Source: Escherichia coli
GTDB taxonomy: Bacteria; Pseudomonadota; Gammaproteobacteria; Enterobacterales; Enterobacteriaceae
Length of the DNA: 64,000 nt
Assembly (NCBI RefSeq): GCF_044324785.1
Contig: NZ_CP172127.1
Strand: one strand, 5' to 3'
Shown: positions 50,444 to 54,354 of the stretch, piece after piece
Position numbering within the stretch: the stretch's first letter is position 1
How the letters are laid out: each line of letters starts with the position of its first letter
Program-made: the position numbers and the translations under genes
The notes under the pieces: generated by a model
Databases searched by the model: none
The model's input: the letters and a program-made list of their open reading frames with translations, nothing else
Told to the model about the DNA's origin: nothing

Positions 50444-52054
50444 TTACATTTGATTAAATGAAAGACGCCGACGAGCACGGGATGCAGGCTTTACGACCGC
50501 CTGAGCCATCGCCTCACCAATTTCTGCACATGCCGTAAGTCCCTGTACGAATGGCTGGTCGTGCATCAACCAGGGCAACGCGCCGAACGCTACGCGCCCA
50601 CGAATTTCTTCGGGTTGCTGTAGCGTATAATCTTCGCCAACATCAGGGATTTCATCCCCTGTTTTCTGTAATTGTTCGCGTAGTCCAGGGAAAGGAATAT
50701 CTTTCACTTTAAGCGGACGCTGCCCGCGGGCATCAATAAAAACGTCAAACGAGTAGCTATTGTCTTCCGTTTTCAGGACGGTGCGCGACTCATTAATTTC
50801 CATTTCGTAGTCTTCACCGAGGGCGAGAATATGAATGATTCCCGCTTCACGTAAGGCCAGTAGTCGACGAATAGACTCTGAAGGGATTGCCGCATAATTA
50901 TCGATGAAAACCCGGGCAAGGCCTTTACTGAACCGTTTATGGTCGTGTTCATTCAGATGAGGAACAATTTCCTGTACGGCTTCATGCAGGCGCAGAATGA
51001 CATAACGCCAGGGAACAGTATGTTTTTCTCGTTTATTGCGTTCGACTTCCTGGAGATTTTTTTCTGCCCAGTCGAATGGGTCGCGTTGTTTGCGCTCGGC
51101 AAACCAGGCTTGAGCAAAGGAATCGACATTCAGGCTTTCTAAGGCTATGCGTTGGCTCCAGTCTGGATCAGCAAATTTGATTTCCTCTACTATCAATCTA
51201 AATACCCGATCCAAAAGGCCCTCTTCGCCTTTTTGAATCTCAGCATTTAATGCTTGATCAGTGACGATGTGTAAGGGCTCGTAGGGAATAGGGCAATAGA
51301 AATCGGCTTCGGGTAAAATACCTGTGCGCGACATTAACGTAATATTTAGCTTTTCACTTGCGTTATCGCGGTGAAAAATGATGTGTTGTTTATCATCTTC
51401 AATGAACGAACCATGCTGAATAGCCACTGCCATTGCCGCATCCAGTCCGCTCAAGGATGTTCCCATAATACCCACATTACACGCATCGACCTTTGCTTCC
51501 ATCAGGCCTGACCACGGGCTGGGAAAGTACGTTCTGGTTGCTTCTTCTTCATCAGGCCAGACGTGACCCGTCGCGATCACTGCTAAATCAAACGTCTCGC
51601 TGGGTAAATCCTGATTTGTAGCGAGCATGACGCCAGCATTTGTAGTTTGCAGATCGGTAACCTGGCATGATTCATAAACAGCCACCGCAAATTTTTGCTG
51701 TCGTGCCTGGTCTACTAATCGTAAAAATTGATCGCGGAAATATTCGCCCAGCAGAATTCGCGGTAAAAACTGGCGATCGTGCAAGGTTTCTTTTTTAACG
51801 CCATAACGCTGGAGATGGCTGGCTTCTTGCTTTTGTAGCCATTCGAGATACGTACAATAAATCGGCGGTATTTCAATACTGGCAATATTTGCCAGCATCA
51901 GTTTTGAGTTTTCCTCATCACTGTATGGCATCCCGACACCGGCTTCATCAGCCTGCTCGAAGATAGAAATAGAAAGTGGAGTTTGTTGCTGTAGAAGCGA
52001 GAATAAGGTGTAGATCCCCGTAGGCCCGGCACCCACAATAGCAATTTTTTTCAT
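50444..52054 (-). CDS. ydhS: FAD/NAD(P)-binding protein of unknown function
   Basis: 536-aa ORF with N-terminal GxGxxG (IVGAGPTG); convergent with ydhT with a 5-bp gap. Confidence 0.85.
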   Translation of the reverse strand: MKKIAIVGAGPTGIYTLFSLLQQQTPLSISIFEQADEAGVGMPYSDEENSKLMLANIASIEIPPIYCTYLEWLQKQEASHLQRYGVKKETLHDRQFLPRILLGEYFRDQFLRLVDQARQQKFAVAVYESCQVTDLQTTNAGVMLATNQDLPSETFDLAVIATGHVWPDEEEATRTYFPSPWSGLMEAKVDACNVGIMGTSLSGLDAAMAVAIQHGSFIEDDKQHIIFHRDNASEKLNITLMSRTGILPEADFYCPIPYEPLHIVTDQALNAEIQKGEEGLLDRVFRLIVEEIKFADPDWSQRIALESLNVDSFAQAWFAERKQRDPFDWAEKNLQEVERNKREKHTVPWRYVILRLHEAVQEIVPHLNEHDHKRFSKGLARVFIDNYAAIPSESIRRLLALREAGIIHILALGEDYEMEINESRTVLKTEDNSYSFDVFIDARGQRPLKVKDIPFPGLREQLQKTGDEIPDVGEDYTLQQPEEIRGRVAFGALPWLMHDQPFVQGLTACAEIGEAMAQAVVKPASRARRRLSFNQM

Positions 52055-52179: not shown

Positions 52180-52485
52180 TCAGGCGAGTTTTGCCTGATT
52201 GATTTGACTCAGTGGCTCATTGACATCGAAAACTTTGGCGACAACTTCCTCAACGCCGAGATTTTTCAGTCGGGCAGTATGTTTTTCCAGATAGGCTAGG
52301 GCGCTTTTTTCATCAGTGAAAAGGTAGATCCCACCGGCTTCGTGGTTCTTTTCACTTTCTGTCCATACCTTCCACAGAAAACCAGGTTCCTGATTAATCG
52401 ACTCAGCAAGCGGTTTAAGCTGCTCAGCCATTGCGTCGCCAAATGGGCCATTAAAAGCAAAATGAAGTTGTAACAAAGTTGCCAT
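52180..52485 (-). CDS. ydhR: putative monooxygenase/dimeric alpha-beta barrel protein
   Basis: 101-aa ORF. Confidence 0.82.
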
Positions 52486-52592: not shown

Positions 52593-52669
52593 TGGTGCGT
52601 CCGAGTGGACTCGAACCACCGACCCCCACCATGTCAAGGTGGTGCTCTAACCAACTGAGCTACGGACGC
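52593..52669 (-). tRNA. valW: tRNA-Val (anticodon GAC), distal copy of a tandem pair
   Basis: minus-strand GCGTCCGTAGCTCAGTTGGTTAGAGCACCACCTTGACATGGTGGGGGTCGGTGGTTCGAGTCCACTCGGACGCACCA: cloverleaf, GAC anticodon, encoded CCA; valV/valW naming is by position and could be swapped. Confidence 0.9.
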
Positions 52670-52673
52670 AGGA

Positions 52674-52750
52674 TGGTGCGTTCAATTGGACTCGAACCAA
52701 CGACCCCCACCATGTCAAGGTGGTGCTCTAACCAACTGAGCTATGAACGC
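52674..52750 (-). tRNA. valV: tRNA-Val (anticodon GAC), proximal copy of a tandem pair
   Basis: minus-strand GCGTTCATAGCTCAGTTGGTTAGAGCACCACCTTGACATGGTGGGGGTCGTTGGTTCGAGTCCAATTGAACGCACCA; differs from its neighbour by compensatory changes in the acceptor and T stems. Confidence 0.9.
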
Positions 52751-53058
52751 AACGTTGTAGGTGACAACGGGGACGAATATTAGCGGCAGAGTGGGAAGGT
52801 GGCAAGAGGCAAAACGTATTTTTCTGCGGTATTTCGACCGTTTGCAGAGCTTTTAAGCAAATTGGCTATATTTTGTTGATTTGCAAGGGCGATTTTTATT
52901 CAGGATCGCATTTACATCAGATACAACCCAATAATCCGTGTATCAGAGTTTAAACAGAGTTGTTTGCCACCATCTCAAAATCTGTCGTGGATAAATCCTC
53001 CGTAGCCTTTACACTTAGGTAGCAATAAAGGCACACAGATGCAGCAAAGGAATAAATC

Positions 53059-54315
53059 ATGGGATCTGATGCGAAAAACTTGATGAGCGACGGGAACGTG
53101 CAAATTGTTAAGACCGGCGAGGTCATTGGCGCGACGCAACTTACTGAAGGTGAGTTAATTGTTGAAGCTGGCGCAAGAGCCGAAAATACCGTGGTCACGG
53201 GGGCCGGTTGGTTGAAAGTGGCAACTGGTGGGATCGCCAAATGCACACAGTATGGCAACAATGGCACGCTATCGGTCAGTGACGGTGCCATTGCCACAGA
53301 TATTGTTCAGTCAGAGGGAGGCGCAATTAGTCTCTCTACGCTCGCTACGGTTAATGGCCGCCATCCCGAAGGTGAATTTAGCGTTGATCAGGGTTATGCC
53401 TGCGGTTTGTTGCTGGAAAATGGCGGTAACCTGCGTGTACTGGAAGGCCATCGCGCGGAAAAAATTATTCTCGATCAAGAGGGTGGCCTGTTGGTCAATG
53501 GGACAACCTCAGCGGTCGTGGTAGATGAAGGTGGTGAATTGTTGGTGTATCCAGGTGGGGAAGCCAGCAATTGTGAGATTAATCAGGGCGGCGTTTTTAT
53601 GCTGGCGGGGAAAGCCAATGATACGTTGCTTGCTGGTGGCACCATGAATAATCTCGGTGGTGAAGACTCTGACACTATTGTTGAGAATGGAGCCATCTAT
53701 CGTCTGGGTACGGATGGTCTTCAGCTCTACAGTTCCGGTAAGACGCAAAACTTGTCCGTTAATGTAGGTGGTCGGGCTGAAGTGCATGCTGGTACGCTGG
53801 AAAACGCGGTAATACAAGGTGGGACAGTGATCTTGTTGTCACCCACCAGCGCGGACGAAAATTTTGTCGTAGAGGAAGATCGCGCACCGGTTGAACTGAC
53901 CGGTAGTGTTGCATTACTGGACGGCGCTTCAATGATTATTGGCTATGGCGCAGATCTGCAACAATCAACGATTACTGTACAGCAGGGCGGTGTGTTGATT
54001 CTCGACGGCAGTACGGTAAAAGGTGACAGTGTCACTTTCAGTGTTGGTAACATCAATCTCAATGGCGGAAAACTGTGGCTGATCACTGATGCGGCAACGC
54101 AGGTGCATCTGAAAGTGAAACGCCTGCGTGGAGAGGGAGCCATTTGCCTGCAAACCAGTGCGAAAGAAATTTCATCTGACTTCATCAATGTGAAAGGGGA
54201 AGTTACCGGTGATATACACGTTGAGATAACAGATGCCAGTCGGCAAACTCTGTGTAACGCACTGAAACTACAGCCAGACGAAGACGGGATTGGCGCAACG
54301 CTCCAGCCTGCGTAA
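53059..54315 (+). CDS. ydhQ: autotransporter-passenger-like (AIDA/pertactin-type beta-helix) protein with no recognisable beta-barrel domain
   Basis: 418-aa ORF rich in G/N/T/V with repetitive GG...V segments; no obvious N-terminal signal peptide. Confidence 0.8.
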   Translation: MGSDAKNLMSDGNVQIVKTGEVIGATQLTEGELIVEAGARAENTVVTGAGWLKVATGGIAKCTQYGNNGTLSVSDGAIATDIVQSEGGAISLSTLATVNGRHPEGEFSVDQGYACGLLLENGGNLRVLEGHRAEKIILDQEGGLLVNGTTSAVVVDEGGELLVYPGGEASNCEINQGGVFMLAGKANDTLLAGGTMNNLGGEDSDTIVENGAIYRLGTDGLQLYSSGKTQNLSVNVGGRAEVHAGTLENAVIQGGTVILLSPTSADENFVVEEDRAPVELTGSVALLDGASMIIGYGADLQQSTITVQQGGVLILDGSTVKGDSVTFSVGNINLNGGKLWLITDAATQVHLKVKRLRGEGAICLQTSAKEISSDFINVKGEVTGDIHVEITDASRQTLCNALKLQPDEDGIGATLQPA

Positions 54316-54354
54316 AAACACAGGCGCAACCCGTTAAGGTTGCGCCTTGTCTTT
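54314..54354. terminator. bidirectional terminator between convergent ydhQ and mdtK (AGGCGCAACC-loop-GGTTGCGCCT)
   Basis: perfect 10-bp stem flanked by an A-run and a T-rich run. Confidence 0.8.

Follow-up and report, generated by a model that had tools for sequence, protein, structure and literature searches.

An intact gene for an autotransporter passenger without a translocator: YdhQ of Escherichia as a probable cytoplasmic beta-helix

What is a bacterial gene that encodes the passenger of an autotransporter and no means of exporting it: the remnant of a lost adhesin, or an intact gene with a role of its own? ydhQ poses this question in a 64,000-nucleotide stretch of Escherichia coli DNA (contig NZ_CP172127.1 of assembly GCF_044324785.1; hereafter, the window), where it lies beside a pair of tRNA-Val genes. 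A preliminary description had offered both answers, a decayed adhesin and a cytoplasmic beta-helix with a separate role, and had noted that the tRNA neighbors, tRNA genes being frequent insertion sites, are consistent with an old acquisition. Here we establish the domain anatomy of YdhQ, its truncation points relative to full-length autotransporters, the boundaries of the insertion that carries it, its conservation, and the selection acting on it. We find that ydhQ is not a decaying remnant but an intact gene under purifying selection across Escherichia, and its product is probably a functional cytoplasmic beta-helix of autotransporter-passenger origin, incompetent for type V secretion. The gene and the two recognizable parts of its product lie as follows.

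53059-54315, plus strand: ydhQ coding sequence, an ATG open reading frame of 418 codons plus stop, with a PRK09945 equivalog match and RefSeq annotation.
53086-53691, plus strand: AIDA-type strand-loop-strand repeats, residues 10-211, the rungs of a beta-helix (Pfam PF16168, TIGR04415, Ag43 alignment and AlphaFold2 model).
54043-54267, plus strand: truncated pertactin-like autochaperone domain, residues 329-403 (Pfam PF03212, model positions 1-78 of 121).

The 418-residue product begins with MGSDAKNLMSDGN and carries the RefSeq label ‘ydhQ: AIDA repeat-containing protein’ in E. coli. Both parts of this label hold. The PRK09945 equivalog, which is YdhQ, is matched over residues 1-418 of 418 at 934.1 bits against a cut-off of 830 in NCBIfam, placing the protein in that family, and the two AIDA-type repeat models, PF16168 and TIGR04415, both score over threshold. 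The top Pfam match to PF16168 covers residues 99-159 (E 1.7e-22) and is accompanied by further copies of the repeat, while TIGR04415 (‘O_hepto_targRPT’, a heptosylation-target repeat) matches residues 149-179 at 41.5 bits, over an NCBIfam cut-off of 30. Partial NCBIfam matches were also found to Ag43 (model positions 249-449), to AIDA-I, and to the BafA C-terminal model (25-203 of 643). At the level of individual proteins, residues 26-142 align to residues 201-317 of the Ag43 passenger (7ko9, 7koh), with E values down to 9e-25. The AlphaFold2 model of YdhQ is an all-beta solenoid with a predicted local distance difference test (pLDDT) score of 82.7, and its truncated end is modeled confidently (pLDDT 85-93 over residues 380-418), even though the Pertactin model covers only positions 1-78 of 121. 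When this model was compared to the Protein Data Bank with Foldseek, the only strong neighbors were Ag43 and glycosylated TibA (E 1.7e-11 to 5.7e-9), with generic beta-helices coming next at E>4e-3. The composition is dominated by glycine (14.8%), leucine (10.5%), valine (9.1%), alanine (8.6%), threonine (7.9%), and asparagine (5.7%), and the 42.9-kDa protein is acidic, with an isoelectric point of 4.38, 52 aspartate and glutamate residues against 24 lysine and arginine residues, and a net charge of about -28. The initial reading of the product as a Gly/Asn/Thr/Val-rich passenger of the AIDA/pertactin type is thus upheld by Pfam, NCBIfam, the Ag43 alignment, AlphaFold2, and Foldseek alike.

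What YdhQ lacks is equally clear. A type Va autotransporter carries a Sec signal and a beta-barrel translocator, and neither was found in YdhQ. Across the first 40 residues of its N-terminus (MGSDAKNLMSDGNVQIVKTGE), the highest 10-residue Kyte-Doolittle mean is 1.03, compared to 2.4-3.4 in signal-bearing relatives, and we observed no signal-like hydrophobic core in that stretch. The Autotransporter beta-domain PF03797 gave no Pfam match to YdhQ at E<=10, and the barrel model TIGR01414 gave no NCBIfam match at E<=0.1. The hydropathy scan and the two barrel searches therefore agree with the preliminary description that the 418-codon frame encodes no Sec signal and no barrel. A longer N-terminus is excluded by an in-frame TAA two codons 5′ of the ydhQ ATG, and an alternative start or N-terminal extension was accordingly rejected on the basis of this upstream stop and of a start codon conserved across all species.

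Alignment to full-length relatives allowed us to place the truncation points. Residues 2-392 of YdhQ run collinearly with 72-486 of P0080, a full-length autotransporter (29% identity, E 3e-28) in which the Pertactin domain spans residues 414-538 and the barrel begins at 585. By this collinearity, YdhQ starts just past the place where the signal peptide and first repeats would be expected, and it ends inside the autochaperone domain, about 26 residues short of that domain’s end and about 73 residues short of the barrel. Other full-length relatives continue for 385-450 residues beyond the last YdhQ-like position. To look for leftovers of the missing parts, we took the N- and C-terminal portions of three full-length relatives as tblastn queries against the whole window, and obtained chance matches only (E>=0.25). 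Immediately 3′ of ydhQ, only 40 bp separate its stop from the convergent mdtK, and they are occupied by a terminator that leaves no space for a barrel remnant.

54322-54347, no strand assigned: bidirectional terminator hairpin between the convergent ydhQ and mdtK, with a perfect 10-11 bp GC-rich stem and T-runs on both strands.

A gene left behind by decay would be expected to be retained only patchily, which ydhQ is not. Of 5426 complete E. coli genomes, 5425 carry the 2-kb ydhQ locus, 5419 of them with at least 80% coverage, and throughout it is annotated as ydhQ between tRNA-Val and mdtK. From the 7/5426 genomes without a match of 80% coverage, a single disrupted allele was examined, that of E. 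coli AR_0013, in which ISEcp1, an insertion sequence (IS) of the IS1380 family, sits in ydhQ at about codon 197 (L002 6150-7809). The window allele is closest to that of strain N3 (99.9% nucleotide identity) and shares about 97% nucleotide identity with K-12-like strains; other E. coli YdhQ alleles, all at the same locus, are 96-99% identical. A search of 5.8 billion proteins confined YdhQ orthologues to Escherichia and Shigella. Complete 418-residue orthologues occur in E. ruysiae (89% identity), Escherichia sp. E4742 (87%), E. marmotae (82%), and E. albertii (80%), and the gene has exactly 418 codons in E. ruysiae, E. marmotae, E. whittamii, and E. albertii. A deeper lineage represented in Logan assemblies encodes a 419-residue form with 71% identity.

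Outside E. coli, in five Escherichia species or lineages and in this deeper lineage, the order is always tRNA-Val, ydhQ, mdtK; species-representative genomes yield five such syntenic loci, and the 419-residue lineage has the same valVW promoter upstream and the same mdtK downstream. The mdtK gene of that lineage is 83% identical to that of E. coli at the nucleotide level, below the 87% of E. albertii, and ydhQ therefore predates the divergence of E. coli from E. albertii; the mdtK genes of Salmonella and Enterobacter stand at 79-80%. Among the orthologues from E. coli, Shigella, and the rest of Escherichia, no longer allele was seen: every one is at most 419 residues long, and the shorter ones are partial records or singletons.

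The pattern of substitution points in the same direction. By Nei-Gojobori estimates, the ratio of nonsynonymous to synonymous divergence (dN/dS) of ydhQ between species is 0.08-0.12 at a dS of 0.18-1.15, and it is still 0.098 between E. albertii and the deep 419-residue lineage, where dS reaches 1.8. Among representatives of five E. coli phylogroups, the mean is 0.11 (0.06-0.29). The neighboring genes mdtK, cfa, and ribE have values of 0.013-0.03, and ydhR and ydhS have values of 0.05-0.15. Constraint extends over the whole gene, as every 40-codon window is constrained; the lowest ratio (0.05) falls in codons 81-140, the ratio elsewhere is 0.1-0.29, and the C-terminal autochaperone part is the least constrained (0.18-0.29).

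53299-53478, plus strand: most constrained segment, codons 81-140 (...VNGRHPEGEFSVDQGYACGLLLENGGNLRVLEGHRAEK...), with a sliding-window dN/dS of 0.05 and nearly invariant in 9 orthologues.

No indels or stops were present across 12 ydhQ alleles that range from E. coli to beyond E. albertii. The marks of a pseudogene, namely a dN/dS near 1, disabling mutations, and patchy retention, were thus not seen in ydhQ. Uniform length, a dN/dS of about 0.1, and retention in 5419/5426 genomes do not bear out the view of ydhQ as the remnant of a decayed adhesin. Same-length orthologues conserved across Enterobacteria under purifying selection, with no homologous full-length autotransporter, had been named beforehand as the finding that would refute a remnant; within the genus Escherichia this is what we found, the homologous full-length autotransporters that exist sharing at most 37% identity with YdhQ.

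An exhaustive HMMER scan of 1.84 billion cluster representatives returned 450 relatives of YdhQ, and, fragments of ydhQ aside, all share at most 37% identity with it; no barrel-bearing ydhQ allele was found. The nearest non-orthologue, P0026, is a 1534-residue Ag43-like autotransporter with ESPR, AIDA, Pertactin, and AC_1 domains. P0026 is encoded on Logan contig L013 (1-13847), adjoining a second autotransporter and proteins with NEL domains and leucine-rich repeats, which resemble type III effector E3 ligases; these surroundings suggest a virulence island in an enterobacterium. Three candidates for distant orthologues, P0074, P0027, and P0028 (54-72% identity), were rejected as error-ridden fragments of E. 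coli ydhQ. Descent of YdhQ from a truncated autotransporter is plausible as ancient history, as opposed to ongoing decay. Cysteine makes up 0.7-1.4% of YdhQ orthologues; the median among 97 full-length relatives is 0.48%, and just 3 of them reach 1.2%. This raised cysteine content weakly supports a YdhQ that may have been freed from the low-cysteine constraint on passengers translocated across the outer membrane.

How did a lone passenger gene come to lie beside two tRNA genes? Comparison to Salmonella (L008) and Enterobacter (L009) delimits an insertion between neighbors that these genera share, laid out below.

52826-54353, no strand assigned: Escherichia-specific insertion of about 1.5 kb, comprising ydhQ, 233 bp upstream, and about 40 bp downstream including the terminator (from homology breakpoints).
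52593-52669 and 52674-52750, minus strand: valV-valW tRNA-Val(GAC) pair (ARAGORN).
52777-52805, minus strand: promoter-like site of valVW from a promoter scan, TTGCCA, 17-nucleotide spacer, TAATAT, just within conserved sequence at the edge of the insertion.

Homology to Salmonella and Enterobacter ends at 52825, on the side of the valVW promoter, and at 54354/54355, at the mdtK stop. Between these points, the insertion replaces about 75 bp present in the two other genera, where mdtK is followed by about 150 bp and then by the same tRNA-Val pair on the same strand. The terminator hairpin at 54322-54347 is part of the Escherichia-specific insert, and Salmonella and Enterobacter have a different hairpin at this place. 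The promoter-like site of valVW is conserved in Salmonella and Enterobacter, and the breakpoint at 52825 lies about 20 bp upstream of its -35 element. A published genomic SELEX (systematic evolution of ligands by exponential enrichment) peak for FlhDC falls in the ydhQ-valV spacer; placed by eye, its sequence corresponds to window positions 52801-52843, which take in the insertion boundary (52825) and the region of the valVW -35 element.

The tRNA genes themselves do not appear to have been the target. The pair lies 308 bp from the ydhQ start in divergent orientation, and ydhQ is 5′ of the tRNAs, upstream of the valVW promoter, not at the tRNA 3′ end. It is the 3′ flank of valV/valW (window position 52593 and lower) that carries a different gene cluster in each genus: genes for the type III secretion system from SPI-2 (Salmonella pathogenicity island 2) follow the pair in Salmonella (L008 9362-17362), and HSP20, GlgS, YdcA, and a type VI secretion cluster follow it in Enterobacter (L009 9374-17374). 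The insertion carries no integrase open reading frame, and we found no direct or inverted repeats and no target-site duplication at its borders. The possibility that ydhQ has a foreign composition was rejected as well. Its GC content is 0.510 against a window mean of 0.516, its GC content at third codon positions (GC3) is 0.483 against 0.548 +/- 0.053, and its codon index is 0.693 against 0.721 +/- 0.048, so that all three lie within about 1.2 standard deviations of the window genes and the comparison of composition to the flanking genes revealed no deviation. Of the features that define a tRNA-associated island, lineage-specific presence was observed, and insertion at the 3′ end, an integrase, repeats, and odd composition were not. 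Because the insertion lies on the promoter side and comes without integrase, repeats, or a shift in composition, tRNA-targeted integration is not supported, and what remains of the original proposal is an old, lineage-specific insertion.

The start of the gene carries signals of its own, beginning with a putative ribosome-binding site.

53047-53052, plus strand: Shine-Dalgarno-like AAGGAA, 6 nucleotides 5′ of the ydhQ ATG.

The AAGGAA element is kept in all Escherichia loci and in L010. It contains one GGA, and a second GGA at 53062 is codon 2 of ydhQ (AUGGGAUC); both are conserved across Escherichia. A computational prediction lists ydhQ as a CsrA target (PMC5389547), and the two conserved GGA motifs (53047-53064) would fit such targeting.

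Together, these results are suggestive of the following history. YdhQ would descend from the passenger of a self-associating autotransporter of the Ag43/AIDA-I type that lost its Sec signal at one end and, at the other, the final third of its autochaperone domain along with the linker and the 12-stranded barrel. A stretch of about 1.5 kb with ydhQ as its only gene would have been inserted between the terminator of mdtK and the promoter of valVW in an ancestor of Escherichia, and purifying selection would have acted on the gene ever since. Because the Sec/Bam pathway is closed to it, YdhQ, a soluble acidic right-handed beta-helix, would stay and fold in the cytoplasm. There, we infer, its rigid beta-solenoid may provide a platform for binding, possibly close to the translation and RNA machinery, and it would not serve as a surface adhesin; this binding role and the ancient truncation are the inferred parts of the model. 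We consider the core of this model, a functional cytoplasmic beta-helix derived from a passenger and unable to enter type V secretion, to be probable, and of the two answers offered at the outset, the data agree better with a cytoplasmic beta-helix that has a role of its own than with a decayed adhesin.

For expression, cytoplasmic folding, co-purification with EF-Tu, and RNA cross-linking, we draw on the literature. SignalP 6 finds no signal peptide in YdhQ, and when no signal is added, fusions of YdhQ fluoresce, stay in the cytoplasm, and fail to display agarase (PMC13101318, 2026). That study, a surface-display toolkit, names YdhQ a ‘leaderless autotransporter’ and does not mention the missing barrel. 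YdhQ was co-purified with EF-Tu (Hu et al. 2009, PMC2672614) and belongs to a group of 17 unannotated proteins that were obtained through RNA cross-linking in vivo, in class Q3 of orthogonal organic phase separation (OOPS) (Monti et al. 2024, PMC11066096). It was also detected in the proteome, with a 5.5-fold change with vanillin (PMC6561319). On the basis of EF-Tu and the RNA cross-links, we tentatively suggest that YdhQ is in contact with the translation or RNA machinery, perhaps under CsrA control, in place of a part in surface adhesion; this suggestion is held with considerably less confidence than the cytoplasmic location.

Several observations weigh against this model. What places YdhQ in the cytoplasm are observations on over-expressed fusions and the results of high-throughput screens. 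EF-Tu frequently contaminates affinity purifications, and direct RNA binding by a protein with a net charge of about -28 is unlikely. The motif in codons 81-140 is also conserved in Ag43, so the constraint on this segment may reflect fold stability or structure and not a binding site specific to YdhQ. ydhQ routinely serves as a neutral chromosomal integration site, and any function it has is therefore dispensable in the laboratory. YdhQ is reported to be displayed at the surface once a signal peptide is added to it (PMC13101318). Finally, early adhesion is impaired in a ydhQ mutant, according to Roux et al. 2005 as cited in PMC9110714.

The last two observations also belong to the most durable alternative, in which YdhQ is a true surface or extracellular adhesin that leaves the cell by a non-classical route (lysis, vesicles, or the barrel of another autotransporter) and aids early adhesion and aggregation through Ag43-like self-association. 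The homologous part of Ag43 is the self-associating part, positively selected ydhQ sites have been reported in wastewater E. coli (PMC9110714), and vesicle proteomes list COG3468 members, with YdhQ named among them. Yet the protein has neither signal peptide nor barrel, and its fusions remain in the cytoplasm without displaying their agarase cargo unless a signal is supplied (PMC13101318). Selection on ydhQ is strongly purifying overall, not diversifying, the relatively high cysteine content is atypical of translocated passengers, and both the in vivo RNA cross-linking and the co-purification with EF-Tu indicate the cytoplasm. We regard the adhesin explanation as unlikely.

Much less likely still is a role for YdhQ as a modulator of type V secretion, or a decoy for it, inside the cytoplasm, where it would bind nascent Ag43/AIDA passengers or use its O-heptosylation-target repeats to titrate heptosyltransferases of the Aah/TibC type. 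Enzymes of this type act in the cytoplasm, and the over-threshold TIGR04415 match and the close fold similarity to 4q1q, a TibC-glycosylated fragment of TibA, speak for this reading. However, Aah/TibC-type enzymes are strain-specific, whereas ydhQ is universal in Escherichia. An experimental or genomic link is absent, and no partner gene is co-localized at the locus. The weakest explanation, that ydhQ is a decaying, functionless, barrel-less remnant persisting by chance, can point to a domain content that resembles a passenger cut at both ends, to the lack of an obvious laboratory phenotype on deletion along with the use of the gene as a neutral integration site, and to IS insertion in occasional strains, but it is largely refuted and in our judgment highly improbable given a dN/dS of about 0.1 at saturating synonymous divergence with 0 indels or stops in 12 alleles, 99.9% retention in complete E. 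coli genomes and maintenance in Shigella despite general gene decay there, conservation of the start, stop, ribosome-binding site, and terminator, and the appearance of the protein in proteomes (PMC6561319, PMC11066096).

On the far side of the tRNA pair, the genes ydhS and ydhR are AT-richer than their neighbors (GC3 0.43-0.44) and evolve at about the rate of ydhQ. In the window, ydhS is an intact 536-residue open reading frame (50444-52054, minus strand); in the near-identical strain N3 it is annotated as a pseudogene with an internal stop and a missing N-terminus (L001 1946-3486). In Escherichia sp. MOD1-EC7003, a clean 291-bp deletion (junction at L003 5425/5426, corresponding to window 52193-52483) takes out the body of ydhR, with ydhS, the tRNA pair, and ydhQ intact beside it. 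As for ydhQ itself, PADLOC gave no match that would link it to a defense system, and its PHROGs matches were to unannotated families only, resembling prophage-borne autotransporter-like proteins.

The gene, its family, and the missing signal peptide of YdhQ were already known and catalogued. What we add are the exact truncation points, the exact boundaries of the insertion, the evidence for purifying selection, and a corrected view of this ‘autotransporter’ as a protein without any translocator. ydhQ is a remaining ‘y-gene’ that is still labeled or used as an adhesin or autotransporter, including in the 2026 surface-display toolkit, and a corrected annotation raises the testable question of what a secretion-incompetent, Ag43-like beta-helix does in the cytoplasm. 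If an intracellular role is true, ydhQ would show, on a modest but real scale, how a module of a secretion system can be recruited to a new use; if it is not confirmed, ydhQ is an ordinary, already catalogued gene. YdhQ could conceivably offer the first clear instance of a passenger taken over from an autotransporter for work inside the cell, through contact with translation or RNA, a claim we put forward with little confidence.

Set against known systems, YdhQ is most like Ag43, AIDA-I, and TibA, with which it shares 19-residue strand-loop-strand repeats, a beta-helix fold, and a pertactin-like autochaperone region after the repeats. Residues 201-317 of Ag43 and 26-142 of YdhQ have a common hairpin motif, ‘...G.F.V..G.A....LE.GG.L.VL.GH.A’. 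Unlike these proteins, YdhQ has no signal peptide or ESPR, no final third of the autochaperone domain, no alpha-helical linker, and no beta-barrel, and with 418 residues it is far shorter than full-length members of about 950-1530 residues, to any of which it is at most 37% identical. The YdhQ of PRK09945 and UniProt P77552 is the same protein at the same locus, with no structural difference. Incomplete autotransporter genes have other precedents in E. coli: the K-12 pseudogenes ydbA, yaiT, yejO, and ycgH also lack a complete signal-passenger-barrel architecture. They are broken in place, with IS elements and fragments nearby, and vary between strains. In contrast, ydhQ has clean, conserved ends, no adjoining fragments, a uniform length across the genus, and a dN/dS of about 0.1.

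In its location, ydhQ recalls the tRNA-valV islands, SPI-2 of Salmonella and the type VI secretion system of Enterobacter, which share its mdtK/tRNA-Val neighborhood and, like it, are lineage-specific in content. Those islands span tens of kilobases 3′ of the tRNAs, whereas ydhQ is a single gene 5′ of their promoter. For the proposed mode of action, the closest parallels are proteins to which YdhQ has no relation in sequence or repeat type: its three-faced, 19-residue AIDA-type repeat differs from those of the pentapeptide-repeat proteins (MfpA/Qnr) and the bactofilins, and QnrB1 and MfpA give only weak, generic beta-helix Foldseek matches to YdhQ (E about 0.02-0.06). The analysis yielded no sign of DNA mimicry or polymerization by YdhQ. 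As an analogy in working mode only, YdhQ may resemble these soluble, acidic, repetitive intracellular beta-helices in serving the cell as a binding surface.

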